Source: Candidatus Iainarchaeum sp. (lineage in GTDB: Archaea > Iainarchaeota > Iainarchaeia > Iainarchaeales > CSSED10-239). From it: a stretch of DNA of 32,000 nucleotides. The notes under the pieces were generated by a model, which made no database searches, was not told the origin of the DNA, and saw only the letters and a list, made by a program, of their open reading frames with translations. Shown in pieces: positions 7,148 through 30,313 of this stretch (within the stretch, counting starts at the first letter, position 1; every line of letters starts with the position of its first letter). Made by a program: the position numbers and the translations under genes. The stretch spans positions 292-32,291 of the forward strand of contig PWLL01000008.1 in assembly GCA_003559395.1 (NCBI GenBank), given 5' to 3'.

Positions 7148-7209
7148 CTAAAAGACAAAAGACAACCCCAAAAAACAAAAGATAACCCTAAAAGTCAAAC
7201 AAAAAAACC
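7148..7209. repeat. Three tandem 20-21-bp imperfect A-rich repeats (iteron-like)
   Basis: CTAAAAGACAAAAGACAACCC / CAAAAAACAAAAGATAACCC / TAAAAGTCAAACAAAAAAACC. On the minus strand the core is GGGTT(A/G)TCTTTTG. The array sits between the late terminator and the early promoter. Confidence 0.35.
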
Positions 7210-7230
7210 GCCAGTCATATAAACTGGCGG
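7201..7230 (-). terminator. Rho-independent terminator ending the late/lysis operon
   Basis: The minus strand reads CCGCCAGT-TTATATG-ACTGGCGG (perfect 8-bp stem) followed by TTTTTTTGTTTG. It lies about 120 nt downstream of the endolysin stop. Confidence 0.75.
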
Positions 7231-7349
7231 CCACAAATCAAAATATCCATTCTAAGGGGTCTGACAGACGATTTAAGAAGTGTTGGTATGATATACCAGG
7301 CCCCTACTATAAAACTGCGATATTACCCCGGTTTTGTGGGCCGGTTTTA

Positions 7350-8156: not shown

Positions 8157-8171
8157 TAAACAAACCCTCCT

Positions 8172-8588
8172 TTAACGCAGATTACTAATTACCAATTGTA
8201 TGATCCCCAGAACAACCATGCACGCCGACAATCCTATTCCCAACCATTTAGCGAGTTCTTTTTTGATTTCTTTTTCCATTTCGTTCATGTTTTTTATTGT
8301 ATTGGCCTCTCTTTCCATCATAGTTGTATATATTTCTTTGAAACCTTTCTCCACCTTTTCCTTCAATCGATCATGAGCCGCCCAGGTAGAAAGTTTTTCT
8401 TTTTGTAGCGCCGACTTATGTAGCCCCGCTTTTATTTCTTTAATATCCGTTCTCATTTCTGCAATTATCTCGTCCAACAATTCGCGTCTTGTTTCGTCTT
8501 TTGCTCTCCATTCTGAAATTGTTCTGATTATGCCATCCATTTGTTCTACAGTATTTTTTAGTTTGTTGTGTTCTGGACAGCGCTCCAA
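8172..8588 (-). CDS. Holin-like lysis protein: coiled-coil N-terminus with a single C-terminal TM helix (XhlA-like topology)
   Basis: 138 aa. Charged helical N-terminal region, then WLGIGLSACMVVLGIIQLVISNL at the extreme C-terminus. Lies immediately upstream of the endolysin. TTG start 6 nt after GGGGAGGG. Confidence 0.45.
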   Translation of the reverse strand: MERCPEHNKLKNTVEQMDGIIRTISEWRAKDETRRELLDEIIAEMRTDIKEIKAGLHKSALQKEKLSTWAAHDRLKEKVEKGFKEIYTTMMEREANTIKNMNEMEKEIKKELAKWLGIGLSACMVVLGIIQLVISNLR

Positions 8589-11600: not shown

Positions 11601-14600
11601 CGGTACATCTCTTCTATCGGCTCGGAATCGGGTGGAAGCATCTTAACTATATTCAAATTATGTTTGGTTAAGTCTTGAAGTGTCGGGAGTGCTCTTTCTC
11701 CTACCGGAACGAAGTATCTAGTATTGTACTGGATAATTTCACTGATTAACCCTGCGTCAAGAAGTTGCTGGCGGTTAGTTGTGAGATCCGGTCCAGCATC
11801 CTTCTTGAGTTCTATACGATAATCACCGGAGACAGTGCTTCTTTGTAATATCCAACTATTATCAAGCATAGCTTTCCAATTCTTATCAACAATTCTACTT
11901 GGTACTGTGCTAATATCGATCTCCTCTAAATCACGACTAGCACCGAGACGTTCAAGGACATTATCGATCTCTTTCTCACTTATAACTCTGCCGAGGATGG
12001 TTTCTCCCTCTTCGGTGAGAGCACGTTTAACTTCGATCTTGCTTGTAGGTAGTTTATCCCAGATATCAAGCAGGGCTCCGGTTATCATGTGAACTGTCTC
12101 TTCTTCATACTCTGGTAGTTCAGCAACCTGTTCATCCCAAAGCTGACGCGCAACATCTTCTGCTGTCATATCAGGATCTGCTGGTTCTTTAATGGTGTTT
12201 TCATCTTCGTAGCGGGGGGAGAGGCCGGCTCTATCAATCCCCTTATTTATTGCCTCTTTTGTTTTCTCGATACCCAGACGCCTAACAGTATTCCTGGCAT
12301 CTTCTATTGCTCGTAGTTCGTTGCTGCCATCTCCCAACTTAGCCCCTGATTTTCCTTCGGTAACTATATACGCCATCTGACCGGAACGGCCTGGATGAAC
12401 GAAGGCGTCTATATCCTCAAATCCTTCAATCTCTACCTCTTTGCCATCCACGGCGACAAACTCTTTTCCATCATGTACGAAGTATACATCTTCTTCTACC
12501 GTTATTATCTCCCAGGTGCTCTCGCGAAACTGGTCTTTTTCAAGAGGTCTCCCTCGTCCGGGCCTCTGGTCGATTAAGCGTACCATCTCAACCACTTCAC
12601 CAGACTTCTTGGTACGGGTGCCTGCTTCTACCGCAAGAACAATGTTTTTAGATCGTTGGTTTTGGAAGTAACCTATATGTCGTTCAAGAAAGGCGGGGCC
12701 TCCGTCTCGGAAGTCTGCACGAGTATGGTCGAATGTTATGGGATATACCTTATTCTTGACATTGAGCTTAATGTACCGAGTATCAGCAGCATCGTCTCTC
12801 TCTACTACGGATCGATCTTCGACAGCCTCGGTAATATCTGCGTGTAGGTTTTCAGTGCCCTTGTCTACTTCTCCGGCCTCTTCTGCTCGCCCATAGACCT
12901 CATTATGTTCTACCTCGAAGGCTTCAAAGACCTGGTTCTGTAAGTGTGGCTCTAACCCTAATATTCTGTTAAGGAATTTCTTGGTATCTCTCAGCTCATC
13001 AGTATCTTTAAGGTTGCCTTCATCTGTAAGAATGTCGTCTTTTATGCCCATTCTTTCTGATATAGTAGATAACCCTTCGTCAATAAACTCATACTCATCA
13101 TTGGAAAGGTTAATATACATTTGCATCAGAGCATCTCTCGCAAAAGGACTGCTCAGATCGTCCTCATTATGGAACAATCCAGAACTCTCAGCCCCACGCT
13201 CCCCGCGCGATAGTGCCCCAAACTCATTAAGACGTTGAGCAACGGTTGAGAGGAACCGTTTTTCACCTTTGAGGTTAGTAGTAACCAAAATGTATTCCGG
13301 AGGTTGTTTTTGGAATGAACGGTGAGTCCGTCCAAACCCCTGGAATACCTCTTTAACGTCCCAGCTTGGCTCTAAGAGATAATGTCTTCTTAATCTTTGG
13401 TTCTTGAAATTTAAACCCGCATGATAGTCAACACCGGTATTGCCGATCTTGCTGAACAGCAGTATATGCTTTTCGTCGTCAAGAAAACGCCTAACCTCTT
13501 CCTGGACATACCCTGTTCCTCTGGTGTCTATATATTTGTTACCTTCCTCATCCTCCAAGACGCGTTCTTTGCGTCCTGTTATTTCAGAGACTCTATCTTT
13601 ACCAAAAGAGTCTACCAACATATCAATCGGTGACTTAGGAAGCCTTACACCGCCCAGGTGAGCAAGCAATTCGTTCTTTAAGCGTACTGCTTCAGGGTCT
13701 TTCACCGTATTGCCTTCGCTATCACGAACGGGTGTCCATACCGTTCTTGTCTTTCCGTCCTCTGTGGTAATTTTTACGGGTTCGTATTTCGTTGTCGGAA
13801 AGGCGCGTTCTACATAATCCATAATCATACTGGTTGGAGATACGTTAAAGTCCTGCAAAGACATATCAGGATCAGTACGGATACGCTGTAACTCTCTGCC
13901 CATAGAGGCTTCTCCTGTTTTATCTACCTGGATAACCGGAGCGTAACCCTGTTCTAAATCTTTCTCAATGCTCTCTATGAGAGTTGGCATTTTCATGGCT
14001 GTAAGCAGATCGCTCCAAAATCGCTGGTAAGTACCGTAAAACTGTGATTTTGCGGCCCTTTTTGCCTGGGGTGATTCCCCCGCCCCTGTTGATTCCATAG
14101 CCGCGGACATGTTTTGAAAGAGGATCTGCCACGCTTCAGCAGCCACGTTATACTGCTGTATTTGTTCTTCTGTCAGCCGGTGTTCTGTGTGGTCATATTC
14201 AATTCCTTCGTAGCTGATCTGTCGAGAAAGGTAAGCACCTTTTTGTTTGGAGTCGCGGGCAATAAGCTCCATACCGCCTAACCCGCTTGCGGATATCTGT
14301 TCAACGAAATCCTCCATGCTGGCAAAAGGTGTTCCCTCGCCCCACAGGCCAAGGCGTTCAGCATAGGCAAGCGTTTCTGGGTCGTCAAATGCTGTAGCTG
14401 ACGAATACTCTATTCGTGCTTCCGGGAAGGCCTCTTGTAATCGCAGACCGGCCATGGCCTGTAGGCTAGGTTCTTTCTCAATTCCAGAAGCGTTCTGCAT
14501 CTTATGTGATTCGTCAAAGACAATTACCCCGTCGAAATCATCGTCAAGCCATTCCATAAGCTGTTCTAAACGTGTTTGTTCCCCTTCGGGCACAATCCTT

Positions 14601-17600
14601 CGTGTTCCATATCCATCACCGGCTGGCTCAACACTATATCCTCCGCGTATCATTGAATATGTTGTATAGAATATGCCATGATCAGGGTCCAGTTCATCGT
14701 TTTTGCTATAATCATTCTGGGCATAAAGTATATCTTCTGACATATGTTCAGGATCGTGCTGGCCAACATCGCGTATATCCCTTTTGGCGGCCTCGTGCAT
14801 ATCACCCCAACTGGCACTAATCCATACCGCTTTATCTCGACCCTGGCGGAGATTATCCAGTATTATAGCTGCTATAGTACGCCCCTTACCGGTACCTGTG
14901 CCATCACCGATCATGTGTCCCTGCCTCACCCCAGAGGGGAGCATTTTCTGGTGAGATTGACCGGCATACACCACGGCTTCTAGCTGTGATTCGCTTATAT
15001 CACCGGATTCTATTAGTTCTTTTGGCAAGTCTGGAGCATAGGTTATGTCTGGCGGTTCTGAGTCTGCCATAGCAGCCGTTTCCGATATCTGCGCCGGATG
15101 TTCCTTTGCTCCCTCTACCTTCAGTTTGGATGGCTTATACTTGCCTGTAAAAATATTATCGCTTAGTTTTCCTCTTCTCTCGTCCTCTCGCTGCTCGACT
15201 CTGAGAGTGCTATCAGTTCGGTCAGGCTCGTTACCCGATTCGAGCTTATCAGGATCGCCAGGTCCTCTAACAGCCGGATGGCGGCTTCCCTTGGGTTTTG
15301 GTCTTGCATCATCCTGAGAAGGTCCCGTCGGTTCCCCAGGTCGAGGTGCTTCAACAGGAGGTTCAACCTCTGGGACGGGCTCATCAGGTCTAACATCTGG
15401 AACGTCTCGGACAGGTTCATCTCTCTCATCCCCAGGGCGAACGGCCACGTCGGGCCGGGTCTCAGGTTCATCCCGAGGTGGAGCAGGTTCACCAGGTACA
15501 GTTCGGATACCGGGTCGCTCTTCGGATGGTAATCTATCAGGTTCTTCTGGTACGCCTGGTTCAGGATCTGGAGGGCTAACTGGTTCTCTGGGATCAGGTT
15601 CAACTGATATATGTTTGCGATCTTCTTTCACTCCCCTCAACATGGGCACGGCCTGTCGTACATCTTTGACCTGCCCCGTTACTGGTGTTTCTGTAGTTGG
15701 ACCATCCTTATCAATAACGACAAGCTGAACACCAAAAGAAGTTCCGTATTTACGATACTCGCTGCCGTCTATCCCTATATTAGCCCTAACATTGTACCTT
15801 TCCTGTATATCCTCCCACCATTCTCTGTGCGCGGGTTTATCAAGTGCCATCCCTTCACCCAGGATAGCTACCAACCTGCCATCATCACGAAGGAGTTTAA
15901 GAGCTTCCTCCATATGGCTTCGAACATTACGGGTATCTCTAACGCCCTCTAATCTACCTGCAGTCGACGAAAACGGGGGGTTCATAACCACAAGGGAAGG
16001 CGGTTCTATTTTATCATGAAGTATTGCGTGTAAGTGCTCTGCATTTTCAGTATACACCGCATCGAATCCCATTTCACGCAATATATTAGCGCGGCGGTCG
16101 GATAATTCGTTGACCATAACCTGCTGGACTTGCATGCCCTTTGGGAAAACAGCCAGCCCGCCGATTCCTGCACTGGGTTCTAATACTATATCCTGCTTCA
16201 TTATAGAGGCTGCCCAGTTAGCCAGGTAAGCAATGTTCGGCGGAGTAGAGAACTGCTGGAACTCTACACCCTCACCGGTGCGTTTGGTTTGAGTAGGAAT
16301 CTTATCTAAAATATCTTCCTGGATTCGATTCAAGACTTTTACTGCATGGGTATAATCTATATTCCTGTGTGTTGGAAACCTGCCTGGGTGTGAAAGTATA
16401 TATTTATTAATACCTAGCTCCATAGCATCATAAGCGTCTTTAGGGGTATATACTCCTTCGGCCTGTGTTCCCTGGTAAGCGGTATCTGCTATAGCGAAAA
16501 GGTCACGCCAACTAAACGAACGGCCTTTTTCTAGCATATCATGAACACGACCAGCAATATCTGTTTCTGGTAAGCGAGCTTTTGCTTTAGTGGGGTCTGT
16601 TGTTGGTTCATCGTCAGGCTTAATACGCAAGTCCTCTATAGCTGGCCTGCCGGTAGCTTCTTGTGTGAGTACAAACCGCTGTGCATCTTCGAGTGAACGG
16701 TGGTGTCCTATAACCTGTAACGGTCTCTTGAAATCATCCCCTGGGGTTTCGGCACGCAACCGGAAAGGTGTATCTGCTATCTTAGTGTCAGTGGTATCTC
16801 TATCCCTTACATCAACTATACTCCAGGGGGTGCCTGGCAGAGTCCATATTTTGCCACCGAGAACAGGATCAGGAACCTCTGTCCATTCTTCTGTGTCGGC
16901 TGGTTCTTCTGGTTCGAAAGCATCCTTAAAGCGCTCTCTTAATTCTTCTAATTGCCGTTTTTCATCTAAACTAGCCACCCTATCCGCTCTCAGCTTTTCG
17001 TCAAGAGCTTCCATGATCATATCGGCTTGATCAAAAAGCCCCTGGCGAAGAAGTTGCTCGTTCAGTTCTTGCATACTGCCAATATTTAAAAGAGCATCTG
17101 TCTCTGGTACGTCTGCAAGTTGTGGATCTCTAGTTACATCTACACTCTGCATAATCCTCTCGTGTTCTGCTTCGCTATCTATACGAAGATCCTTAAACCG
17201 TTCAAATTCCTGCGGGGTAATGTGCTTTAAAACCTCTGTGCGGAATTCTTCCGGGTCCTGCATTTCGTACATGGCTGTTCCTTCAAGCAGATCGATTATT
17301 ACACTGGCATCACCATAAAGCCATATAAGTTTTTCGCCGGTCCACTTAATAGCTTCGTAATCATCTTCCAATACCTCTGATAGTACCCAGCGGTTAAGCG
17401 GAAGAGATACATCCGGTGCATGATCGCCAGTAAGCGGGAATTCCGTCATAACAGGTTTAGGACCGGGAACGATTTCAGATACAGACGCAACAGTGGGTTC
17501 CTCTTCTTCCACCGGAGCTTCTTCTACCATAGTCAACCTGCCAGGACTAACACTTTCAACCCTTTCAACAGGACGACCAGCAACCATCGATATCTGGTCA

Positions 17601-19606
17601 ACATGAACGCTAACCATAGTACCTAAACCCTCATAATCAATAACACTTCTTACGGTACCAGTCAACTCTTCTCCTTCTGGAGTGGTCCATGATACGCGGT
17701 CTTCTCGTTTGAATGTAGGTGCTTCAACAGGTTCTTCCGGGGGTATCTCTTCTAACCGTTGTTCCAGATCGTCTATCATCTGGTAATCCCTCTGAACAGC
17801 TCCTACCCCACCAATCACAGGCGTTCCTGCTGCTTCTGCTTGTTCTGCCTGTTGAAGTTTTTCTTCAAGGCGTTGTTTAATTTGTCCTATATCTTCTGGA
17901 GTTAAATCTTCCAGAGGCTTATCTACTGATATGGTATGGAATGGTGAATCCTCAACCACTTCAGGAGGTTCTACCGTGGGAGCGTCAGGCATAGGTGCAG
18001 AAGGTGTTTCTACAGTAAGACCTTGCGGCCCCTCAACTATACGGAAAGGCCCTGTCGGTCCTGTTGATATGGCCGGAGTAGGTATTTCCATAGTAGTCGG
18101 GATAGTAGGTTGTACCTGTTGCGGCATATCAGGAGCAGTCGGTACCCCATAAGGCGCCGCTTGAGTAGCCGGCGGCGATATCTCCATACTGGGATCCGGT
18201 GTGGTTCCTGCGGGCCAGGCGAATTGAGTTCTTTGTACCTCTTGTTGTACCCCTTGATCTACCTGCTGGGTTGCCACTTGTTTGGCCTGTGGTGACATAT
18301 CGCTGCTCTGGATCATATTATAGGCGGTGTCCCTTGCTATCTGAAGTTCTTTAAACTTTTCAGGATCTCCACTGGGCACATCAGGGTGTAATGTTTTTGC
18401 AATATGCCTATAGGCACTCTTTATCTGATCCCGTGTTGCCGTCTCTGGCAGTCCCAGTACAGAAAAGGCTCTACTTCTTATCTCCTGCTCCCTTACTACA
18501 TCACTGCGGGTGGCTTCTGCTTCCTGTCTTAACCTTTCACGGTAAGCGTTTAGCTTGCGTTCTATGGTCTCAGCATCATCCCCAGGACTTATACCAGCAT
18601 CCGCAAATATCTTTTTCCGGTTATCGCGGGCTGCATGGAATGTTTTATGTACCCGGTTAATCTCTGCCTTATCCTGCGGAGATAGTGCTGCTGTGTTTAC
18701 CAGTCCGAGAATAGTAAGGCCAACCACAGAGGAACCCATATCCATAAGATCCAAAGGTTCTCTTTCGTCTGGGGGAGTTAATGCCCTTCTTGTTACCTCA
18801 GAAGCGGTTACTCCTGCCGGTGCAGAAATTAAGGATCTGGTCAGGCTTTGCGCATATGGATATAACTGATCCGGTACGCTTGTAGGAAGTTCTTGCGCTA
18901 ATCGCCCGGCGTAAGGAGCAACAGCACCCATCGCACCACCAAAAGCCAATGAGCTTGCGAAGTCTGCTGCGGTAGGCCGGTGTTCTTCGGGCATACCTTC
19001 AAGTTCCATTCCTCGTATGCCAGCGAAACGAGCAGCTCCACGGGCCGCACCACTCAATGCCTCGGGCGTCTGTGCTGCTCTAAGCGCAAGTTCAGGAGCA
19101 TACCTCGCTCCTGCATACCCCAGGGCCTGTGTTCCGGCCTGGGTAAAAGGTCCCATAAGCTTTAATCGTCCCAACCAACCGGCGGTTGATCCCAGGGTGT
19201 GCATGGTCTGATCGATTCTTTCATCACCAGTTGTAGAATAAGTACCCTGGCGCCTTTCTACTACTCCCGGCTGCATACCATAACTCTCCTGCCAGGCTTC
19301 CGAGAACCGGCTGAGAGCTGCATCTACACCAGGAGCCACCCTTCCTACCCATGTATCTTCATCAGTAAGAAACCTGGTTACAGGTTGTTTAATCTTTTCT
19401 ATCTCCTGCATCAGCAGAGGATTGTGTCCTACCCAGTCTATGGCCCGTTGATATGGAGTAGAAGGTGTGAACCCCGTATCTTCTGCCCACGATGCAATCG
19501 CGGCCCCGGGTGTTTGTGGGGCCGTAGCTTGCGGGTCCTGAGCTTGTGGGCTGGTGGGGGTAGGTTGTTGTTCTTGCCATATATTTGCAAACGGGTTAGT
19601 TGCCAT
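8660..19606 (-). CDS. Giant 3,648-aa polyvalent virion/ejection protein (J-domain + N6-adenine MTase + Strawberry-notch/SNF2-like helicase + HExxH zincin + TM-containing C-terminal region)
   Basis: Uninterrupted 10,947-nt ORF. The SD GGAGG lies inside the last codons of the upstream gene. Motifs are listed as separate sub-features below. It is the last structural gene before the lysis cassette. Confidence 0.9.
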   Translation of the reverse strand: MATNPFANIWQEQQPTPTSPQAQDPQATAPQTPGAAIASWAEDTGFTPSTPYQRAIDWVGHNPLLMQEIEKIKQPVTRFLTDEDTWVGRVAPGVDAALSRFSEAWQESYGMQPGVVERRQGTYSTTGDERIDQTMHTLGSTAGWLGRLKLMGPFTQAGTQALGYAGARYAPELALRAAQTPEALSGAARGAARFAGIRGMELEGMPEEHRPTAADFASSLAFGGAMGAVAPYAGRLAQELPTSVPDQLYPYAQSLTRSLISAPAGVTASEVTRRALTPPDEREPLDLMDMGSSVVGLTILGLVNTAALSPQDKAEINRVHKTFHAARDNRKKIFADAGISPGDDAETIERKLNAYRERLRQEAEATRSDVVREQEIRSRAFSVLGLPETATRDQIKSAYRHIAKTLHPDVPSGDPEKFKELQIARDTAYNMIQSSDMSPQAKQVATQQVDQGVQQEVQRTQFAWPAGTTPDPSMEISPPATQAAPYGVPTAPDMPQQVQPTIPTTMEIPTPAISTGPTGPFRIVEGPQGLTVETPSAPMPDAPTVEPPEVVEDSPFHTISVDKPLEDLTPEDIGQIKQRLEEKLQQAEQAEAAGTPVIGGVGAVQRDYQMIDDLEQRLEEIPPEEPVEAPTFKREDRVSWTTPEGEELTGTVRSVIDYEGLGTMVSVHVDQISMVAGRPVERVESVSPGRLTMVEEAPVEEEEPTVASVSEIVPGPKPVMTEFPLTGDHAPDVSLPLNRWVLSEVLEDDYEAIKWTGEKLIWLYGDASVIIDLLEGTAMYEMQDPEEFRTEVLKHITPQEFERFKDLRIDSEAEHERIMQSVDVTRDPQLADVPETDALLNIGSMQELNEQLLRQGLFDQADMIMEALDEKLRADRVASLDEKRQLEELRERFKDAFEPEEPADTEEWTEVPDPVLGGKIWTLPGTPWSIVDVRDRDTTDTKIADTPFRLRAETPGDDFKRPLQVIGHHRSLEDAQRFVLTQEATGRPAIEDLRIKPDDEPTTDPTKAKARLPETDIAGRVHDMLEKGRSFSWRDLFAIADTAYQGTQAEGVYTPKDAYDAMELGINKYILSHPGRFPTHRNIDYTHAVKVLNRIQEDILDKIPTQTKRTGEGVEFQQFSTPPNIAYLANWAASIMKQDIVLEPSAGIGGLAVFPKGMQVQQVMVNELSDRRANILREMGFDAVYTENAEHLHAILHDKIEPPSLVVMNPPFSSTAGRLEGVRDTRNVRSHMEEALKLLRDDGRLVAILGEGMALDKPAHREWWEDIQERYNVRANIGIDGSEYRKYGTSFGVQLVVIDKDGPTTETPVTGQVKDVRQAVPMLRGVKEDRKHISVEPDPREPVSPPDPEPGVPEEPDRLPSEERPGIRTVPGEPAPPRDEPETRPDVAVRPGDERDEPVRDVPDVRPDEPVPEVEPPVEAPRPGEPTGPSQDDARPKPKGSRHPAVRGPGDPDKLESGNEPDRTDSTLRVEQREDERRGKLSDNIFTGKYKPSKLKVEGAKEHPAQISETAAMADSEPPDITYAPDLPKELIESGDISESQLEAVVYAGQSHQKMLPSGVRQGHMIGDGTGTGKGRTIAAIILDNLRQGRDKAVWISASWGDMHEAAKRDIRDVGQHDPEHMSEDILYAQNDYSKNDELDPDHGIFYTTYSMIRGGYSVEPAGDGYGTRRIVPEGEQTRLEQLMEWLDDDFDGVIVFDESHKMQNASGIEKEPSLQAMAGLRLQEAFPEARIEYSSATAFDDPETLAYAERLGLWGEGTPFASMEDFVEQISASGLGGMELIARDSKQKGAYLSRQISYEGIEYDHTEHRLTEEQIQQYNVAAEAWQILFQNMSAAMESTGAGESPQAKRAAKSQFYGTYQRFWSDLLTAMKMPTLIESIEKDLEQGYAPVIQVDKTGEASMGRELQRIRTDPDMSLQDFNVSPTSMIMDYVERAFPTTKYEPVKITTEDGKTRTVWTPVRDSEGNTVKDPEAVRLKNELLAHLGGVRLPKSPIDMLVDSFGKDRVSEITGRKERVLEDEEGNKYIDTRGTGYVQEEVRRFLDDEKHILLFSKIGNTGVDYHAGLNFKNQRLRRHYLLEPSWDVKEVFQGFGRTHRSFQKQPPEYILVTTNLKGEKRFLSTVAQRLNEFGALSRGERGAESSGLFHNEDDLSSPFARDALMQMYINLSNDEYEFIDEGLSTISERMGIKDDILTDEGNLKDTDELRDTKKFLNRILGLEPHLQNQVFEAFEVEHNEVYGRAEEAGEVDKGTENLHADITEAVEDRSVVERDDAADTRYIKLNVKNKVYPITFDHTRADFRDGGPAFLERHIGYFQNQRSKNIVLAVEAGTRTKKSGEVVEMVRLIDQRPGRGRPLEKDQFRESTWEIITVEEDVYFVHDGKEFVAVDGKEVEIEGFEDIDAFVHPGRSGQMAYIVTEGKSGAKLGDGSNELRAIEDARNTVRRLGIEKTKEAINKGIDRAGLSPRYEDENTIKEPADPDMTAEDVARQLWDEQVAELPEYEEETVHMITGALLDIWDKLPTSKIEVKRALTEEGETILGRVISEKEIDNVLERLGASRDLEEIDISTVPSRIVDKNWKAMLDNSWILQRSTVSGDYRIELKKDAGPDLTTNRQQLLDAGLISEIIQYNTRYFVPVGERALPTLQDLTKHNLNIVKMLPPDSEPIEEMYRIEERLDIDPVPDEFMVEVFSLAAELAAPARYTGLRTKAAARFTDIGGDERIETRDVTNLETLGHEVAHVIDYRINNNQYPSSIKERFPDLEVGEMELREQLKAVAKQVRPPEEGELDRYRNKHTELMADFYTMYLLNTEMARNLAPDVAQGLDMQIRQNPDLHQKIQDIIQKRHEMKRKIDVSAIRPIEEVERLLPSEYLTDDYKDNVKTIIKSWSRLFRLRQIEAGYRKIDWSARFTEEQLEDMGAAVEEVKNIRTGKTAEEIQEELTPEMRQALAEYRYFQEKARQDLNRFMREVVGDEEYVTYLEDYLLHFYENKPKRIKEFAYRWTKRVPSAMQRTIPTLEDAVEAGLVPRTQNIAELHYLWHELNWKGALNRAFVHELTKIANDEGEPIIQKSNQAPPHWPLVDHPAINKYYARQARDGTTILWEGKAAVDPEAYKITKQVFEQPFHWKPLQIIEAFNAYAKGLSLKLSGFHFWNLTESAQAALAKITQPLRGFFTVGEEVKEVDESAVIRRTHQLGLDLISGSPEALRDAIMHGVVFDPIPDAHMRRINQDLRKLEAHTRKIPGAGSLVRKMRQANEWYDRKLWNEYYAGLKAITYYEWAKEALSDQKVNAKDASPQKIREIKEEVARMVNDAFGGQEWESHFWATPRVRQAMKLLWLSPDYTYTNMRIFGRTLYENLPFKKNKDPVVRKFGARYWISMLISMLAAINIANRALTGRWAWENEPGRRTDIDVTPIIHAARKIIGTYDPDDERRYYAAPGKQAREILRYFDDPITYLFGSKFSPVVRTALEQTTGTQAGPGGWPMPWREGDMPFYQEMDERVRAVYEKFVPFSLRGNNFAFTMPMRRGMGWWQAQKGYEDLWRARVDPSWWQRTYQQIAPGSQLLRLKQQLDEAAVLNGLDPAEQEKQAVSKLRTEYYGNLWNAVDRGDREEAEHYANILIQLGVDATGAQRSGEARPYVTDESVQRALMLFAE
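9437..9496 (-). other. Predicted transmembrane helix in the C-terminal region of the giant protein, aa 3371-3390
   Basis: WISMLISMLAAINIANRALT is flanked by basic residues (RKFGARY ... GRW). A second hydrophobic segment, SSVVGLTILGLVNTAAL, lies at aa 291-308 near the N-terminus. Confidence 0.4.
11207..11539 (-). other. HExxH zincin-like metallopeptidase motif region inside the giant protein, aa about 2690-2800
   Basis: LETLGHEVAHVIDY (HEVAH aa 2733-2737, nt 11396-11410), with a downstream E in HTELMADFY as a possible third ligand region. This is a motif-level call only. Confidence 0.45.
13187..14995 (-). other. Strawberry-notch/SNF2-like superfamily-2 helicase module inside the giant protein, aa about 1538-2140
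   Basis: Walker A GDGTGTGKGRT (aa 1567-1577), motif II VFDESHKMQN (DESH aa 1698-1701), motif VI FGRTHRSFQ (aa 2091-2099). These are followed by YILVTTNLKGEKRFLSTVAQRLNEFGALSRGER, which closely parallels the Strawberry-notch C-terminal block. Confidence 0.8.
15197..15604 (-). other. About 135-aa Pro/Glu/Asp/Arg-rich disordered linker between the MTase and helicase modules
   Basis: EPDPREPVSPPDPEPGVPEEPDRLPSEERPG ... DEPETRPDVAVRPGDERDEPVRDVPDVRPDEPVPEVEPPVEAPRPGEP. The DNA is a degenerate reiteration of GAACCTG-type units. Stops are depleted in several other frames on both strands here. Confidence 0.7.
15737..16309 (-). other. N6-adenine DNA methyltransferase domain inside the giant protein, aa about 1100-1290
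   Basis: FQQFSTPP, then motif I VLEPSAGIGGLA (E1143), then motif IV VVMNPPFSS (NPPF aa 1209-1212, nt 15971-15982). The order and spacing are typical of amino-MTases. Confidence 0.8.
18308..18478 (-). other. J-domain (DnaJ/Hsp40 N-terminal domain) inside the giant protein, aa 377-433
   Basis: RSRAFSVLGLPETATRDQIKSAYRHIAKTLHPDVPSGDPEKFKELQIARDTAYNMI. The invariant HPD is at aa 407-409 (nt 18380-18388), with a basic helix II and an F/KEL helix III. Confidence 0.8.
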
Positions 19607-19609: not shown

Positions 19610-21931
19610 TTAACCTCCAATTACACTATATATATCATCGAAGGTGACCCCTGGGGGTAACGCTTCCTCGAATTCATCTCTTATTGCCGGCGAGATAGCT
19701 TCCAGGTAATAAAGTAGCTCTTCGATATCGTTCAATGTACCATCCCTAACCAAGACTGTTTCCAGGTTAGACGCAATCATATCAGCAGCGAAACCTTCCT
19801 GCCCTGCTACCTGCGGGACTATATTCGGCAGTATGCTTCTTACATAACTGGCTATCTCTCTATCAGCATCAGGATCGCCTTGCGCCTGGAACGTGAGATC
19901 ATCATCCAGTGCCGCTTCTGCGGGTTCCTCAACCGGTGTCATATCTTCTGCCTGCTCGGTTGGTTGCGGAGCCATACCAGGTTCTGGAGTTGGTACCTCT
20001 CCAGGTTCGGTAATCTCTTCCGTTCCCAGAGCTTCGTCAACCAGGTCTACCTGAGGCAATCTATCTTCATAACCTACTGGCCGTTCAAAGGCTTCTTCAT
20101 GAGTAGGTATACCGCGAGTTTCTTGTGGTGGACCGGCTAATGTCGTTGTCGGTCTATCCACCGGGGTAGGCCCTGCTTCTGGCTGAAGGTCCATACCCAT
20201 TACAGCATCAACATCGCGTTGTTCTCTTTGTCCTAAGCTCGGATCCTCATCATAAATAGCCGCAAGTATTTCATCAAACGGCACCTGATATGCTTCTTCT
20301 GTGGACTGTTTCTGTGCTTCTGACAGGCCCTCAAGTATGCGGATAACATCGTTTAGTGTGGCGTCCTGATATTGAGTGGTTACCGCAGTAATAATATCAT
20401 CTACCGCATAGGATACGTCCCCTTGATATTCTTCTGGTGCTGCCGGAAGTGGTGTTGCCTCTTCAGGTACCGTCTCTACATCTGGCACGACCTCTTCCTC
20501 TGTTATCTCAGGGGTCAGTCCAGGCATATCTAAAGCCGGATCCGGTTCAAATTCGGGATCCAGTTCAGGAGATACGGCCATTGGGTCTACCTCCGGCTGT
20601 GGCTGTGGGGTAGCTTCGGGAGTTATACCGTATCTTCTAAGGGCATCACCAACCTGCCCGAAATGCTGTCCGGCGCCACCACCCCAGAGTCTTCCCAGCC
20701 ACGAACCCTGCTCTTCCCCGACCATCTCTTCGGGAACAGGGGTACCATCTTCATAGACAGGTCCATACTCGGCATGGTTCCAGTACGGGAGCCCGGAAAT
20801 ATCTACTCCATCGCCCTCGGGATTCCAGCCAACAAGCTCTTGCAGTTCTTCTGGTGCAAGTACCGGCTGGGCCAGTGGATCTATCATCCCTTCTAGGTAC
20901 CCGGGATGAATCCAGTTACCTTCTTGATCGGAGTGCCATACGTTTCCATCTTCATCTTGATATCTGAATATAGGGCCAAACTGTGGGTGGTCTGTCCCTG
21001 TATATACGCCATCCGCTGGTGGTGGTGCTAATGTCATGGGTTGCGGTCCGAAATCGCCACCAAAAGCTCCCCACTGGTCCTGCGGTGCAAAACCCATACC
21101 CATAGTACCCTGCATGTTTTCATTAATAGTCCGTTCTCTTTCATTTAAAATGTTCTGTAGTTCTACTTGTGCGTTAATAAGATTTGCATTGGCCTGGTCA
21201 ATAGCTGACTGACTAACTCCAGCAGAGATCAGATTGTCACGTTCGACTTCCATAAGGTTAATGTTTTTTTTCATCATATCTGTTTCTAATTCAAGGTGGT
21301 TAAGACGATGTTGCTGTTCAGCTGGCATTATATTATCGAGATAATATCTATGCTCTCTAAGTCCCAGATCAATTTCTTCTACCTGTCTATCATAAAGCTC
21401 CCGATTATGTGCGTTTAAATCAGCCGCCTGTCTTACATCTAATGACGCTAGTTGATTGTGTAACCGCTGTTGCGCCTGCAATAATGGGCTCATATCCTGA
21501 AAGTGTTGTGTTTCGGCTGCTATCCCCTGTGCTGTGGCGTCCTGCACTCCGGTCAGGGAACGGGTATAATCTGCCTCTGCACCCAGTCCCTCCTGCCGTG
21601 CCAGACTTTCTCCGGTAACCAGCGGAGCATCGACAACACTATGACCGAAAAACTGTTGAAAATAAGCGGGATTAAATGCCTGCTCACCAAACATACCAGG
21701 GTCTACATCAATTCCTGCCCCGGATATCATCTGCTGAACCGGAATATCTTCAAATCCAGTTAAATAACGTGCTTCTTCTTCTAACATTCTATTCCTTAAA
21801 TCTGCTTCCTGTAGTGCGCGTTCCGCAAGCTCCTGATCGTCTCTAAATGTTTGCAACTGCATATAACGTCCAAAAGGATCCGCTTGCGCTAATCCGCTTG
21901 CGAATCCTCCAACGCCTGCTCTATAAGGCAT
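19610..21931 (-). CDS. 773-aa coiled-coil, acidic, low-complexity structural protein; internal-core/ejection protein by position (T7 gp15 slot)
   Basis: N-terminal Gly-rich MPYRAGVGGFASGLAQ. Long Q/N/E/L coiled coil at aa about 140-270. The C-terminal half is Pro/Glu-rich. Only 3 nt separate its stop from the giant gene start. The size matches T7 gp15 (about 747 aa). Confidence 0.5.
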   Translation of the reverse strand: MPYRAGVGGFASGLAQADPFGRYMQLQTFRDDQELAERALQEADLRNRMLEEEARYLTGFEDIPVQQMISGAGIDVDPGMFGEQAFNPAYFQQFFGHSVVDAPLVTGESLARQEGLGAEADYTRSLTGVQDATAQGIAAETQHFQDMSPLLQAQQRLHNQLASLDVRQAADLNAHNRELYDRQVEEIDLGLREHRYYLDNIMPAEQQHRLNHLELETDMMKKNINLMEVERDNLISAGVSQSAIDQANANLINAQVELQNILNERERTINENMQGTMGMGFAPQDQWGAFGGDFGPQPMTLAPPPADGVYTGTDHPQFGPIFRYQDEDGNVWHSDQEGNWIHPGYLEGMIDPLAQPVLAPEELQELVGWNPEGDGVDISGLPYWNHAEYGPVYEDGTPVPEEMVGEEQGSWLGRLWGGGAGQHFGQVGDALRRYGITPEATPQPQPEVDPMAVSPELDPEFEPDPALDMPGLTPEITEEEVVPDVETVPEEATPLPAAPEEYQGDVSYAVDDIITAVTTQYQDATLNDVIRILEGLSEAQKQSTEEAYQVPFDEILAAIYDEDPSLGQREQRDVDAVMGMDLQPEAGPTPVDRPTTTLAGPPQETRGIPTHEEAFERPVGYEDRLPQVDLVDEALGTEEITEPGEVPTPEPGMAPQPTEQAEDMTPVEEPAEAALDDDLTFQAQGDPDADREIASYVRSILPNIVPQVAGQEGFAADMIASNLETVLVRDGTLNDIEELLYYLEAISPAIRDEFEEALPPGVTFDDIYSVIGG

Positions 21932-21948
21932 TTTCTAACCTCCCTCTA

Positions 21949-22491
21949 TTAGCTCTGCCACGGCCAACCGTGTTCAGAAAAATAATCGATAGCATACGGT
22001 GCCGCGGTTCCTACAGCTTGCCCTATTCCTTGCCACATCTGTCCACTACGCTGCGCATCCATATCCTGTGCGCGTAAAGCTCTGTCCGCTAGTGCTGATT
22101 GTCTCTGAAAATCCTGCTGTTGAAGTCCTGTCGCATATTGCGCCAGGTTGGCCTGGTGCTGCATGGACAGATCACCGGCAGTAGACCTCCTCAAAGCGGC
22201 AGCCGGTAGTTGTCCGAAAAAACCTCTCTGCATGCTTTGGTGGTCTATGTTAGATAGTGTTTGATCCATAGTCCGCTGAAAACCCGGATCTAACGCCTGT
22301 TGCGCCCGTTGATAAGCATCATCCCAGGGGAGTTGTTCTACCTCCTGCTCTTGCGGTTGCTGTGTTGCCTGCGTATCGCTGCTACTACCACCAAATGCCC
22401 GCTCTAATAGGCCGCCCCCTATAGTACCTATAACGCCACCAACAGGGCCGCCTAAAGCTGTGCCTAAAGCCCCTCCGACGGTCTTGAACAT
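21949..22491 (-). CDS. About 180-aa protein with an N-terminal glycine zipper; internal-core/ejection protein by position (T7 gp14 slot)
   Basis: MFKTVGGALGTALGGPVGGVIGTIGGGLLERAFGG followed by a Q-rich helical region. GGAGG followed by a 9-nt spacer favours the ATG at 22491. Confidence 0.45.
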   Translation of the reverse strand: MFKTVGGALGTALGGPVGGVIGTIGGGLLERAFGGSSSDTQATQQPQEQEVEQLPWDDAYQRAQQALDPGFQRTMDQTLSNIDHQSMQRGFFGQLPAAALRRSTAGDLSMQHQANLAQYATGLQQQDFQRQSALADRALRAQDMDAQRSGQMWQGIGQAVGTAAPYAIDYFSEHGWPWQS

Positions 22492-22522
22492 AATATACAA
22501 CCTCCTTTATCCATGGTTCGCT

Positions 22523-22918
22523 TTAAACTATAATACCCTCTGCGTTCACCCAATCGGTACCGTCATACCATATCGGTAGACCTAAGTCGGTGTCGAAATA
22601 CATCTGATAATCACGGGGTTCGGATGGTCTTTCTGCTGTGGGTCCACCGTTTCTCGTTTCTTCTTCAATTATGGCGTCAACTTCATCCTGGGTATAATAA
22701 TCTTGAAGTGTGTTGTTTATTTTCTGTTGCGCTCCCTGTGGCGTCTCCGCACCAATATCCCCAGGGTAAACTCTATCGATCCCTCCTGCTGCATGAGACC
22801 GTCTGTGACGCGGAACTTCCGTATCTTCTATTGAAGCTCTTATGATCTCCGAGAGCTGATCAGAGATCCTCTTATCACCCGACCGGGTTACAATGCGCGG
22901 ATCGCTTTTGTTGCTCAT
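22523..22918 (-). CDS. 131-aa structural protein with tail-fibre-like short motifs (T7 gp13 slot)
   Basis: HRRSHAAGGIDRVYPGDIGA, and a C-terminal RPSEPRDYQMYFDTDLGLPIWYDGTDWVNAEG. The latter resembles the RP..P..G..YFDT.L..PIWW.G..WVDA.G motif I recall from fibre and depolymerase proteins. ATGA overlap with the upstream gene. Confidence 0.4.
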   Translation of the reverse strand: MSNKSDPRIVTRSGDKRISDQLSEIIRASIEDTEVPRHRRSHAAGGIDRVYPGDIGAETPQGAQQKINNTLQDYYTQDEVDAIIEEETRNGGPTAERPSEPRDYQMYFDTDLGLPIWYDGTDWVNAEGIIV

Positions 22919-24810
22919 ACTGTATCACCCATTTGTTGAACCAAGTTATAATCCAGGGCTATTCCATACAGTGTAGGCATGTTATGCATTCCGGTTACCG
23001 GTACTGGAGAATCTTCGTGCTCCTCTATAACTACTTCAAATCTACTGCCTACAGCATAAGTTTGAAGTCGCGCAGTATAAAGTCGTGCACCACCAGAACC
23101 AATCACTACCTCTTTAGATTCAACCTCTTCATCATCCGCATATAAAGTAACAATAATCTTATACCCGTCAATGAAAGGGTTCTCCATCGCAACGTATATC
23201 CTGCTAACCTTTTTCTTTCTGAAAGGGTGTCCGAAATGGTATCGCGGAGAACGAATCTTCCATCTGGCCGGATCGTATTCAGGATCTCCTTCTGAGTCTA
23301 AACCCTGTTCAAAAACAATCATATTATTGTCGCTGGCAGCTAAAATATCACCGTTTAAGGTATAGCAAAAATCATTAATATGTATATCAGGGTATAAGGT
23401 AAATGAACCGAGATTGAAATCAAAAACCAGAACATTGTTATTTATACCAGTATCATCATCACAATACGACAGTAAATATCGCTCATGCTTACTATCGAAC
23501 ACCCCGGTTGCCTGTTCAGGATAAGTAATCTCTTTGATAATACTGGAGACCCTGTTCTTTGCAATATTGTTTATATAATTCTCTCTGGCCTCCATCGCCA
23601 TAGATACACCAATTATATTCGGCGACAGAGCATAAAGACCACCAGGGCCAAACATGGTAATAGAGCTGGTTGTAAGGTGTATCGTATTACTCGATAGTGT
23701 CCCTTCTGAAGTGGGTAGTTTCTCCCAGACAGCATCAATTTCTGGATCTATACCCCTCCAAGACCAGATCGAGTTCTTATAAAAAACTAAAACCGCGTCC
23801 ATAAAGACCGCGAGGCCGGTTACTGGTCCATCTGCAGTCGTTGGATACAATACCGAGGTTTCTCTTATAGCTGGCGGATCATTAGGTTCACTGAAATAAA
23901 GCGCTGATTCGTTACCTTCTGCGCCGGCATAAAACATTCTAAAGCTCTTCGGATGGCGTACTGCAAACTTACACGTTTCAACGGGGTGCTCCTCATATTC
24001 AAATTGCTCATCAGGATCTGTATCAACAAATGGCTCCTCTATATCCGGCTCGTTATAAAACTTATGTTCAATAGGGTCGGTAATCGTATCATAGTCAGGA
24101 TGTGGTATAACATCATGGAAGAGTTGATAGAACTCTTCACCATCAGCTAAAGTCATAAATGGCAGTACCCTCTGATAGTTAGGGTTGGGCATGATCCAGT
24201 CTACTCTATAACTATCTGGAGGAGCCTCTACCTCTGCAACAGGCGAAGCCTGAGAAATGATCTCTCCTTCTTTAGTGACATAAACATATAAACATTTGTA
24301 GGTCCCTGACGAAAAGGCGCCGCCACCAATTATCGTTTGAAATTCTACTACTGGAGCTTCCGGTGGTGCTGGTAGAGTATGTCTATCGTAAAAGAGTGTT
24401 ACCTCCTCAACCGTATCACCATCGTATACATACATCTGTTCTTCACCAATAAAGTATAACTTGTCTTGTAGAAAGAAGTATGCAATTCGGTCGTAACCAA
24501 CGGCATGTAGCGGTTCAGATTCTTCGGTTTCGAATATATATTCCATTAAGGTTTGATCCGCTACAAAAAGCAGGGATGAAGTACCATCATCCCTCTGCCA
24601 TTCAAACACCTGTGTAATTTTTTCATAGAATCCCTCTTCAAAGAGGACCTGGCTGCTTTTTCTTTTCCTAAGACCGCCGCGTTTACTAAGTTCCACGTTC
24701 TCTGCAATCTGTAGTTCACTGCGATCTAAGTGATCAGGGCTGGCGTCTACGTTAAGGCCACCGGTATAGTTATAATCAACGTGTTGTATCACTCTGCTGG
24801 GATCAGGCAT
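22915..24810 (-). CDS. 631-aa putative tail tubular protein B / nozzle (T7 gp12-like)
   Basis: The N-terminus YNYTGGLNVDASPDHLDRSELQIAENVELSKRGGLRKRKS parallels the T7 gp12 N-terminus (KGGISQQPDILRYPDQGSRQVNGWSSETEGLQKRPP) in its GG(I/L)-x-P-x-L-x-N-x-GL(Q/R)KR pattern. The rest is beta-rich. Position relative to neighbours fits. Confidence 0.45.
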   Translation of the reverse strand: MPDPSRVIQHVDYNYTGGLNVDASPDHLDRSELQIAENVELSKRGGLRKRKSSQVLFEEGFYEKITQVFEWQRDDGTSSLLFVADQTLMEYIFETEESEPLHAVGYDRIAYFFLQDKLYFIGEEQMYVYDGDTVEEVTLFYDRHTLPAPPEAPVVEFQTIIGGGAFSSGTYKCLYVYVTKEGEIISQASPVAEVEAPPDSYRVDWIMPNPNYQRVLPFMTLADGEEFYQLFHDVIPHPDYDTITDPIEHKFYNEPDIEEPFVDTDPDEQFEYEEHPVETCKFAVRHPKSFRMFYAGAEGNESALYFSEPNDPPAIRETSVLYPTTADGPVTGLAVFMDAVLVFYKNSIWSWRGIDPEIDAVWEKLPTSEGTLSSNTIHLTTSSITMFGPGGLYALSPNIIGVSMAMEARENYINNIAKNRVSSIIKEITYPEQATGVFDSKHERYLLSYCDDDTGINNNVLVFDFNLGSFTLYPDIHINDFCYTLNGDILAASDNNMIVFEQGLDSEGDPEYDPARWKIRSPRYHFGHPFRKKKVSRIYVAMENPFIDGYKIIVTLYADDEEVESKEVVIGSGGARLYTARLQTYAVGSRFEVVIEEHEDSPVPVTGMHNMPTLYGIALDYNLVQQMGDTV

Positions 24811-25333
24811 GGCGTACCACCCTTACCTGACTGGGTTTACGTTTTCTGATAAGTGTATTAAATGTACTGGCAGCTAACTCTCTGAACTCGCCTATAAGCC
24901 GTACTCCATCCGGGCTATGGTCGTCGTCTCTCAGTTTTATAAAACCGCGCATATATGAAACGAGTGCGCTTTTGTATAAAGAGTTAAGATCGATTATATC
25001 CGTTAATTTTTCAATGGATTCCGGCAACTTTCGAGCTGCCACTTTGTATGTTCCGCTTTCTGCAAAACGTATCAGATTATCTTCATACTGCCAGCGGTAA
25101 TAAGGGTTACCGTCCTCATCGACAACATGGATTACGGTTATGGCATCGTTAGGTATGACCGTCCATGCTTCTTCTGACTTATCATAATCTATAGTTACCT
25201 CGCCATAAGCCAGACCCAGCACTCCCATCTGATTAACGCTCTCGTTAATGATCATTACTGCATCGTCATTGTCAATACTGATCGGCAAAAAGTTTTCTGC
25301 CTCATCTACTATCTTTTGAGCTTGAATAGGCAT
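24803..25333 (-). CDS. 176-aa putative head-tail adaptor / tail tubular protein A (by position only)
   Basis: Lies directly upstream of the nozzle-like gene, with an 8-nt overlap (ATGCCTGA). Its size is close to T7 gp11 (about 196 aa). I see no sequence-level similarity. Confidence 0.3.
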   Translation of the reverse strand: MPIQAQKIVDEAENFLPISIDNDDAVMIINESVNQMGVLGLAYGEVTIDYDKSEEAWTVIPNDAITVIHVVDEDGNPYYRWQYEDNLIRFAESGTYKVAARKLPESIEKLTDIIDLNSLYKSALVSYMRGFIKLRDDDHSPDGVRLIGEFRELAASTFNTLIRKRKPSQVRVVRHA

Positions 25334-25358
25334 AAAACCACCTCCTGTTTAGGTTGGT

Positions 25359-25856
25359 TTAATCATCAGGAGAGCAGGGGATCCCCCAGGGGACCTCCTC
25401 ATAAACCTCTGTTTCCCATTGAGAATCTCCGACATCTTTTATATCCCAACCCAGCCGGGAACTAACCAGAGTTAAGATGAATTCATTGAGCGTAAATATC
25501 CCATCAGGGTACAGTCTTATATTCTCTACGGTCATTGTCTGCCGTAGTTTCAGAGTATCTCCATGTTCAAGTTCAAGATCGTCTCCATCTATCAAAACTT
25601 CTTCGTCGTTTTCTAATAAACTATAAGGACCGTCGTTTTTAGACATCTCAATCTGTAGTTCTGCTATCGGAGGTATACTTTGCATAGTCCAGGATACATG
25701 TCCAAAATCTATCCTTGCGAAATCCTCAAATACCCCACCCTGTTCATCAGTTAAGGGTATTTCGGTTTCACGCACACCTACAAACGGGGCCACAAGGCCC
25801 AGATCCACTTCCAGAGCGTCAAGTTCACTATATAGCCCTTCGTATTCCCAGTCCAT
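25359..25856 (-). CDS. Hypothetical structural-module protein (165 aa, very acidic)
   Basis: ORF with an upstream SD, co-oriented within the late operon. No motif recognised. Confidence 0.5.
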   Translation of the reverse strand: MDWEYEGLYSELDALEVDLGLVAPFVGVRETEIPLTDEQGGVFEDFARIDFGHVSWTMQSIPPIAELQIEMSKNDGPYSLLENDEEVLIDGDDLELEHGDTLKLRQTMTVENIRLYPDGIFTLNEFILTLVSSRLGWDIKDVGDSQWETEVYEEVPWGIPCSPDD

Positions 25857-25879
25857 GACCTAGAACCCCGCCCCCTTCG

Positions 25880-26107
25880 TTATTCTTCTGGTTGTTCTTC
25901 GGACAGTAGAGCCTCCACTTCTTCTTCCGTTAAAAACTTCTTTTCTTCAGAATCGTAGTACACCGCACCCTGCCAGCCATTATCACCCGATATCGGTGCC
26001 TCGCCTACAATAAAACCTACCGGATTTTTTGGAACGGTAAAGTTCCAGGTATGTATTTTATATATCCCCGAATGTTCTACCTCTTTACCACGCACTTCTA
26101 CTGCCAT
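25880..26107 (-). CDS. Hypothetical small structural-module protein (about 75 aa)
   Basis: The ATG at 26107 (MAVEVRGKEVEH...) lies downstream of AAAGGTGGTG. The track start at 26122 (GTG) overlaps the SD itself. Confidence 0.45.
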   Translation of the reverse strand: MAVEVRGKEVEHSGIYKIHTWNFTVPKNPVGFIVGEAPISGDNGWQGAVYYDSEEKKFLTEEEVEALLSEEQPEE

Positions 26108-26124
26108 ATAAAAAAACACCACCT

Positions 26125-28248: not shown

Positions 28249-28268
28249 AAAAACTTATCCTCCTAAAG

Positions 28269-30275: not shown

Positions 30276-30313
30276 TAATACTCACCTACGCTCATTTCTA
30301 CACGTTAAGATTA

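Follow-up and report, generated by a model that had tools for sequence, protein, structure and literature searches.

A J-domain near the N-terminus of a giant, probably virion-packed polyvalent protein and its possible role in recruiting host DnaK

Giant proteins such as N4 vRNAP, the T7 core proteins and DarB-like enzymes, which are ejected through a phage tail channel of 3-4 nm, must exit unfolded or bead-like and then act within seconds, and no host chaperone has so far been implicated in their refolding (PMC13434306). The DNA analyzed here (the window: 32,000 nucleotides (nt) of contig PWLL01000008.1, positions 292 to 32,291, assigned to Candidatus Iainarchaeum sp.) bears on this problem through a single open reading frame (ORF) at 8660..19606 on the minus strand, which encodes a protein of 3648 amino acids (aa), 412 kDa and pI 4.9, hereafter the giant, with a J-domain near its N-terminus. 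The question raised by this locus is what a docking module for Hsp70 is doing in a multi-enzyme protein of such size. Residues 377-433 are a genuine J-domain with an intact HPD loop. The favored reading, which is given a probability of roughly 0.4, is that it serves as a working Hsp70 co-chaperone module in the N-terminal part, or delivery end, of a polyvalent protein brought in by the virion.

The identity of the domain (18308..18478, minus strand) is established by profile, sequence and structure comparisons. The Pfam DnaJ profile (PF00226, curated cut-off 27.8 bits) matches residues 381-425 of the whole 3648-aa protein with 38.4 bits (E 1.3e-9, profile positions 3-50 of 63) and an 89-aa fragment of it with 45 bits (E 1.2e-11), and NCBIfam DnaJ models match the same residues. 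By phmmer, 41 distinct J-domain chains among the PDB sequences match the giant, Sis1 being the best of them (1e-7). A HMMER search with residues 1-480 against 1.84 billion representative proteins gave 666 matches at E<=0.001, and among the 150 matches listed the alignment was nearly always confined to the J-domain. Foldseek results with an earlier single-sequence AlphaFold model were uninformative, and an alignment-based model was used; this AlphaFold2 model covers residues 280-465, was built on a 45-sequence alignment and reached a mean predicted local distance difference test score (pLDDT) of 88, with 95-98 in the J-domain. J-domains accounted for all of its 50 top Foldseek matches in the PDB: Sis1 (4rwu) superposes with a root mean square deviation (rmsd) of 1.1 A over 49 columns, and the J-domain of DnaK-bound DnaJ (5nro_B) with an rmsd of 2.6 A over 50 columns, the E-values (0.015-0.5) being modest because the domain is short.

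The residues on which J-domain function depends were also examined. The HPD tripeptide (residues 407-409, nt 18388-18380) sits in the loop that joins helix 113-127 of the model to helix 136-155, within the helix II/helix III hairpin. Helices I-III are canonical, helix II having K, Y, R and H where DnaJ has R22, Y25, K26 and R27 and helix III retaining F-K-E, while the canonical helix IV motif LsDxxkRxxYD is absent and another helix, conserved among the closest relatives, is found instead. A profile score above threshold, an HPD loop and a helix II/III hairpin with a basic helix II are therefore found together. The original prediction, made from the letters of the DNA, had placed a J-domain with an intact HPD loop at residues 377-433 and had proposed a profile or structure prediction as the check; both return a J-domain. 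Its coordinates are also right, but the gene lies on the minus strand; the peptide RSRAFSVLGL...AYNMI maps to nt 18478..18308, the plus-strand translation of 18308-18478 being nonsense.

The giant ORF starts with an ATG at 19606, provided with a GGAGG Shine-Dalgarno sequence, and the public protein collection holds an identical 3648-aa protein (NCBI record). Its mass agrees with the multi-enzyme protein of about 400 kDa that had been predicted. The first part of the polypeptide consists of a Pro/Gln-rich N-terminus, an N-terminal domain, a basic helical linker and the J-domain; acidic and Pro-rich linkers, a methylase, a Strawberry-notch helicase and a C-terminal module of about 1000 aa follow in this order. 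The N-terminal domain (residues 125-310; 18677..19234, minus strand) is Gly/Ala-rich and includes moderately hydrophobic segments. The last of these, MGSSVVGLTILGLVNTAAL (residues 290-308; 18683..18739, minus strand), is a candidate membrane anchor with a Kyte-Doolittle hydropathy of 1.55-1.58, computed over 19 aa, and is preceded by 3 K/R in 30 aa and followed by 7 in 30 aa. A transmembrane-like segment had been predicted ahead of the J-domain; it is real (residues 285-308) and ends about 70 aa before that domain, but its hydrophobicity is moderate only. The basic helical linker (residues 309-376; 18479..18682, minus strand) continues unbroken into helix I of the J-domain in the AlphaFold2 model, where the linker helices occupy model residues 31-58 and 66-105 (residues 310-337 and 345-384 of the giant) with a pLDDT of 90-97.

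Behind this delivery-like end, the giant carries its enzymes. The N6-adenine DNA methyltransferase domain (residues ~1101-1310; 15677..16306, minus strand) has PHROG methyltransferase matches and an NPPF motif at residue 1209, and by tblastn it matches phage and plasmid methylases. The Strawberry-notch-type SWI2/SNF2 helicase (12851..15103, minus strand) is composed of AAA_34 (residues 1502-1820, with DESH at 1698; Pfam E 3e-101) and Helicase_C_4 (residues 1993-2252; Pfam E 7e-69). Taken together, the methylase-helicase core is 36-44% identical to plasmid proteins annotated as "bifunctional methyltransferase/helicase, strawberry notch", the plasmids that carry these relatives being conjugative, and no close counterpart of the core was found by tblastn among 50,697 phage records. 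The C-terminal module (residues 2649-3648; 8663..11662, minus strand) contains the HExxH motif HEVAHVID (residues 2733-2740, nt 11387-11410), a conserved hydrophobic helix (residues 3366-3388) and the motifs GGQEW and WENE. HExxHxxD, with which the module opens, is unvarying across 22 relatives, but the best Pfam zincin match is ATLF at E 0.05. The module has no Pfam or PDB match, and profile and sequence searches with it and with the central part of the giant against the PDB sequences likewise gave none. Pfam matches no LPD-family domain in the giant, and neither Pfam nor PHROG matches an RNA polymerase domain.

The setting of the gene points to late expression. Between 31902 and about 7350 the genes are all encoded on the minus strand. 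The block upstream of the giant (19610..31902, minus strand) is of structural type and includes a 773-aa gene, a 631-aa gene resembling internal virion or head-closure proteins, a 707-aa WD40/tail-fiber-like gene and a 668-aa gene with Big_1 and CarboxypepD_reg; its PHROG matches are to "virion structural", "internal virion protein" and tail-fiber families. The ATG of the giant lies 3 nt past the stop of the 773-aa gene, and the giant gene is translationally coupled to this structural-type gene. Downstream, the operon ends (7206..8588, minus strand) with an ORF of 138 aa at 8172-8588, an endolysin of the glucosaminidase type at 7350-8156 and a terminator-like hairpin (7232-7206). The giant is thus the last large gene of the late operon, the place where virion-borne cargo is expected, which is an indication from context and no proof. 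Both the position of the J-domain near the N-terminus, behind a hydrophobic region, and the encoding of the protein in a late operon that leads from structural to lysis genes agree with the original prediction. The order of structural genes, giant, small ORF and lysin is repeated at the loci of the two relatives P0011 and P0018, described below: in L009 a 569-aa gene is followed by the giant, a small ORF, lysozyme and SSB, and in L011 a tail-fiber-like gene and a 571-aa gene are followed by the giant, a small ORF, an M15 lysin, SbcC-like, RecT and Lactamase_B genes. The giant was also considered as a tape-measure protein. This was rejected on account of its enzyme domains and of its location after fiber-like genes and directly before the lysis genes; moreover, a tape measure of 3648 aa would mean an implausibly long tail.

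Polyvalent proteins were described as a class predicted to be packed into the virion and to enter the host by injection along with the DNA (Iyer, Burroughs, Anand, de Souza and Aravind, 2017; PMC5512222), in which the dyad of methylase and SWI2/SNF2 is predicted to protect the incoming DNA like P1 DarB (PMC5512222). A methylase-helicase dyad and HExxH in a late phage context make up the signature of such proteins (PMC5512222), and at least two disparate activities, a late-gene neighborhood and the methylase-SWI2/SNF2 dyad are all found in the giant. By gene order, by membership in this class and by analogy with P1 DarB and N4 vRNAP, the giant is probably packed in the virion and injected into the host.

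Five J-bearing giants can be compared: the window protein, P0011, P0018, L036 and L103. P0011 (2565 aa) and P0018 (2438 aa) were found by N-terminal search, and both share the N-terminal domain of the giant and the position of its J-domain; blastp aligns residues 125-462 of the giant with 97-415 of P0011 (E 4e-18) and residues 125-625 with 154-569 of P0018 (E 3e-16). P0011 combines an HPD J-domain, scored at 17.7 bits by Pfam DnaJ, with a cargo of ddrB-ParB, HExxH and LPD38; P0018 has an HPD J-domain (36.8 bits), a cargo that includes a ComEA-like helix-hairpin-helix, and the same C-terminal module. L036 and L103 came to light in profile scans with the C-terminal module. In L036 (1221 aa), hydrophobic N-terminal segments and an HPD J-domain (38 bits) are joined by a Pro/Ala linker to the C-terminal module, with no other cargo. 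The L103 giant (L103:1386-12937), which lies in a probable prophage on a 450-kb contig of a Gemmatimonadales metagenome-assembled genome (MAG), has a J-domain of 31 bits with HPE, followed by GGDEF, an Eco57I-type methylase and SNF2, and its C-terminal module is the closest to that of the window (46% identity). The coding sequence of this giant is broken near 9335-9716, where two frames overlap, by a frameshift or an assembly error, and its GGDEF is a diguanylate-cyclase domain.

Three properties are shared by these proteins to different degrees. First, HPD is kept in four of the five, at a pairwise identity among the J-domains of 20-40%, which argues for selection; conservation of HPD had been proposed as a check on the domain, and it holds in three of the four divergent homologues and fails in the fourth, L103. 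Second, the J-domain starts 25-85 aa past the last hydrophobic segment in all five. Third, all five display the same charge asymmetry: the 30 residues ahead of that segment contain 0-3 K/R and the 30 that follow contain 6-9, as would be seen if the segment crossed the membrane and left the J-domain on the cytoplasmic face. The cargo, on the other hand, is wholly different from one protein to the next (methylase and Sno helicase; ddrB-ParB and LPD38; helix-hairpin-helix; none; GGDEF, Eco57I-type methylase and SNF2). Since the cargo differs entirely and the position of the J-domain is fixed, the J-domain travels with the N-terminal end and not with any enzyme. This constancy favors a role in handling the giant itself. 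Four proteins with eukaryote-looking matches (P0019, P0052, P0086 and P0107) were rejected as relatives, as they have the J-domain alone in common with the giant. A ranking of J-domain identities, intended as a test of single origin, was uninformative because the comparison set had been preselected by similarity to the window.

Taken together, these features suggest recruitment of DnaK, for refolding or pulling, as the best-fitting mechanism; packaging, ejection, the membrane topology, the engagement of DnaK and the benefit are parts that we infer. The 412-kDa protein would be made late, packed in the head and released through the tail in a state that is unfolded at least in part. The hydrophobic, Gly/Ala-rich region at its N-terminus would then settle in or at the host inner membrane, so that the K/R-rich linker and the J-domain come to lie on the cytoplasmic side, where the three-helix J-domain, being small, could refold unaided. 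The HPD loop and the basic helix II would dock host DnaK-ATP and trigger hydrolysis, and DnaK would clamp the adjacent unfolded chain, helping the methylase/helicase cargo to emerge and refold alongside the entering DNA; once refolded, the cargo would shield this DNA from restriction in a DarB-like manner. The giant would act in this scheme as a membrane-anchored, client-tethered type III J-protein, and the J-domain would be an optional booster and not an essential motor.

Several observations weigh against this scheme. The hydrophobic segments, with Kyte-Doolittle values of 1.3-1.6, are borderline for transmembrane helices; L103 has HPE, and the J-domain of P0011 scores below the cut-off at 17.7 bits. 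Late expression is compatible equally well with a role in the producing cell, and packaging and ejection are argued from gene context and analogy. No homologue of the N- or C-terminal parts of the giant was found by tblastn in a cultured phage. A further point comes from the family defined by the C-terminal module, for which profile scans gathered about 95 loci: of the 37 distinct proteins gathered whose N-terminus is complete, no more than three carry a J-domain (four of about 38 with the window included). In L051, the upstream genes are homologous to the 176-, 631-, 131- and 183-aa genes of the window and the giant, with a Gly/Ala-rich N-terminus and a P0018-like cargo, lacks a J-domain; L073 (3857 aa) and L074 (3901 aa) are bigger than the window giant and lack it as well. 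The J-domain is consequently no general requirement for packaging or ejecting members of this family, and the figure of four in about 38 makes it an optional accessory and not a core ejection motor.

The patchy distribution favors an accessory or effector role, and the alternative that has to be weighed first, possible although rather unlikely, is that the J-domain is a host-takeover effector, perhaps freed by the HExxH peptidase, which hijacks or titrates DnaK for the good of the phage without acting on the giant. Stabilization of sigma-32, as by Rki of phage RB43, the blunting of a chaperone-dependent defense or the readying of DnaK for phage replication would be examples of such an activity. 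Patchy, optional occurrence is typical of accessory effectors, and there are precedents both in Rki, a phage J-protein that reprograms DnaK (PMC3486835), and in HopI1, a J-domain effector of Pseudomonas syringae injected by type III secretion (PMC8150971); polyvalent proteins, moreover, are collections of unrelated effector domains that may be autoprocessed by their metallopeptidases (PMC5512222). The J-domain is however not shuffled with the changing cargo: its slot, directly behind the N-terminal hydrophobic region, is identical in five of five giants; in addition, no substrate-binding or targeting domain accompanies it.

The link of the J-domain to the hydrophobic N-terminal region, and not to the cargo, is also what would be seen if DnaK served in the producing cell, keeping the nascent giant, with its hydrophobic N-terminal region, soluble, or loosely folded and fit for packaging, until it is loaded into the procapsid, with no role in the next host. 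The location of the gene in a late operon together with structural and lysis genes agrees with such self-chaperoning, as does the optional occurrence of the domain across the family, which would suit a folding aid. This explanation is nevertheless judged unlikely. L073 and L074 are similarly large and do without a J-domain; the producing cell already has its own DnaJ, CbpA and DjlA, so that a built-in J-domain would add less there than in a fresh host; and the K/R-rich flank suggests a membrane topology that a cytoplasmic role in the producing cell would not call for.

A stronger version of DnaK recruitment was contained in the original prediction, which as a whole is partly supported: the idea that the J-domain is part of a translocation motor. 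In a phage-built import motor, the membrane-inserted N-terminus would present the J-domain at the mouth of the channel, and a DnaK ratchet of the Sec63/BiP or Pam18/mtHsp70 type would pull in and refold the giant, perhaps together with the genome end. An obligatory motor is weakened by the finding of the J-domain in only four of about 38 complete C-module proteins, and the import motor is considered improbable. If true, it would be the first chaperone-driven step described in the entry of phage protein or DNA and would answer how ejected giants refold. Least probable of all is that the giant is not virion-borne but a late cytoplasmic anti-restriction or DNA-modification enzyme with the J-domain as a folding aid or decaying relic: its packaging is only deduced, the nearest relatives of its methylase-helicase are proteins of plasmids and integrative conjugative elements and not of phages, P0001, which has the C-module only, lies in an integrase-rich island with no tail genes in view, and HPE in L103 and the sub-threshold J-domain of P0011 could be signs of decay, but tight synteny from virion genes through the giant to the lysin is kept in three lineages, a methylase-helicase that is produced only late can shield entering DNA solely as cargo of the virion (PMC5512222), and HPD has survived at 20-40% J-domain identity.

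The C-terminal module deserves attention in its own right. It has more than 130 relatives in metagenomes, appears to be a family not yet described, and forms the C-terminus of many proteins of 1000-3900 aa with varied cargo, in which HExxHxxD, GGQ(E/D)W, WENE and a hydrophobic helix are unvarying. P0001 (1964 aa; L003-L008/L105, Pirellulales MAG; L003:10001-15895) consists of the module without J-domain, methylase or helicase. The island around it encodes two integrases, an IS1595 transposase, ParB and nucleases of the PIN/NYN type, and adjoins a prolyl-tRNA synthetase-like gene (Pfam tRNA-synt_2b, tRNA_edit and HGTP_anticodon), and no tail genes are visible within 10 kb of P0001. Word-indexed searches with the first 700 aa of the giant or with an N-terminal profile gave no family members. 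In IMG/VR, neither these 700 aa nor the last 1200 aa of the giant nor the upstream 773-aa protein gave a match, and a scan with an N-terminal-plus-J profile gave only small unrelated phage DnaJ-like proteins (L012-L016). These are stand-alone J-domain proteins of 105-457 aa on several IMG/VR viral contigs, and one is a complete protein of the DnaJ/CbpA type; phages in IMG/VR thus do encode free J-proteins, and J-domains fused into giants are rare by contrast. Among the 50,697 phage records, neither the window nor the N- and C-terminal parts of the giant had a match by megablast or tblastn. Two uncharacterized, widespread modules, the hydrophobic N-terminal domain and the 1000-aa HExxH-containing C-module, merit the status of families.

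The remaining genes of the window complete the picture of the locus. Two large putative fiber or receptor-binding proteins are encoded at 26125-28248 and 28269-30275 (minus strand); one of them has a C-terminal WD40-type beta-propeller and a tail-fiber PHROG match, and the other has Big_1, MG3/MG4 and CarboxypepD_reg. The terminator-like hairpin at 7232-7206 (minus strand), directly past the endolysin gene, is strong, with an 11-bp stem, 6 G-C pairs and a T-run, and a sigma-70-like promoter-like site with an 11/12 consensus match lies beyond it (7072-7044, minus strand); the two probably separate the late operon from the transcription unit that follows. A recombination module (2121-6041, minus strand) includes an SbcC-like ATPase (654 aa), RecT (283 aa), a hydrolase with a metallo-beta-lactamase fold (233 aa), for which the public record gives a faint match to Anti-Pycsar Apyc1, and SSB. 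The order of the SbcC-like, RecT and Lactamase_B genes is repeated in L011, and identical RecT, hydrolase and SSB proteins are contained in the runs SRR490128 and SRR490129. Finally, the free 65-aa protein that had been related to the J-domain (199-396, minus strand; alternative ATG start at codon 10) does have two CxxCxGxG motifs, CKYCDGKG and CEECGGTG, and scores 21.2 bits with Pfam DnaJ_CXXCXGXG, under the cut-off of 32.7; a functional link with the J-domain was rejected because no ORF of this type is present at the other J-bearing loci.

J-domains, phage J-proteins and polyvalent proteins are each known, and it is their combination that appears to be undescribed, because DnaJ, J-domain and Hsp70 have 0 occurrences in the main text of the polyvalent-protein paper (PMC5512222) and a full-text search of the literature for DnaJ domain, phage and ejection protein combined gave no paper. 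This agrees with the original prediction, which knew of no described ejection protein with a J-domain: no paper that places such a domain in an ejection protein, a virion protein or a polyvalent protein was found. The location of the J-domain at the junction between a membrane-type N-terminus and the cargo leads to the hypothesis that host DnaK is recruited at the site of entry, which would enlarge the set of modules known from polyvalent proteins by one that hijacks a chaperone.

Compared with known systems, the giant resembles the polyvalent proteins in the gathering of unrelated activities in one huge polypeptide that adjoins late (virion) genes, in the combination of an adenine methylase with a SWI2/SNF2-type ATPase, for which a Strawberry-notch variant was noted (PMC5512222), and in a zincin-like HExxH motif. 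The Pfam polyvalent marker domains LPD38 and ddrB-ParB are present in its relative P0011, whereas the window giant has no LPD match; its hydrophobic N-terminal domain and 1000-aa C-module are not in Pfam. P1 DarB shows no tblastn similarity to the giant in the phage collection at E 1e-5.

Among phage J-proteins, Rki, the product of gene 057w of the T4-like phage RB43, is made inside the infected cell. Like the giant it has a phage-encoded HPD J-domain, which in Rki is functional and engages host DnaK (PMC3486835), but it is a small free protein that stabilizes sigma-32 (PMC3486835) and belongs to no multi-enzyme or virion-associated polypeptide, and the word "virion" is absent from the paper describing it (PMC3486835). 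HopI1 shares with the role proposed for the giant a J-domain that is injected from outside and exploits the Hsp70 of the host; it differs in its target, the chloroplast Hsp70 of plants, in the C-terminal location of its J-domain and in the machine that delivers it, homology being limited to the J-domain.

The arrangement around the J-domain recalls the membrane-anchored type III J-proteins, represented by DjlA in bacteria and by Sec63 and Pam18/Tim14 in eukaryotes. In these proteins, as in the giant, a hydrophobic segment is followed by a basic flank and an HPD J-domain, which would place Hsp70 at the membrane or at the exit of a translocation channel. They are small dedicated co-chaperones with the J-domain at the end, however, whereas that of the giant is found within the first tenth of an array of enzymes 3648 aa long and its helix IV region is atypical. 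The DjlA model of NCBIfam (NF006948) matches the J-domain only, with 19.1 bits against a cut-off of 162, so that the giant is no DjlA orthologue.

In N4, ejection has been demonstrated for vRNAP (gp50), and for the giant it is deduced. The N4 protein, of about 3500 aa, crosses a tail channel of 30-45 A and refolds in the cytoplasm while tethered to the membrane (PMC13434306), a refolding that was left as an open question in which chaperones are unmentioned (PMC13434306). It has an RNA polymerase domain and lacks a J-domain, whereas the giant has a J-domain and neither an RNA polymerase domain nor similarity to gp50. N4 vRNAP, the model for giant ejection proteins, is nevertheless the closest studied analogue of the giant, which is similar in size and carries its J-domain at the position of the N4 linker.

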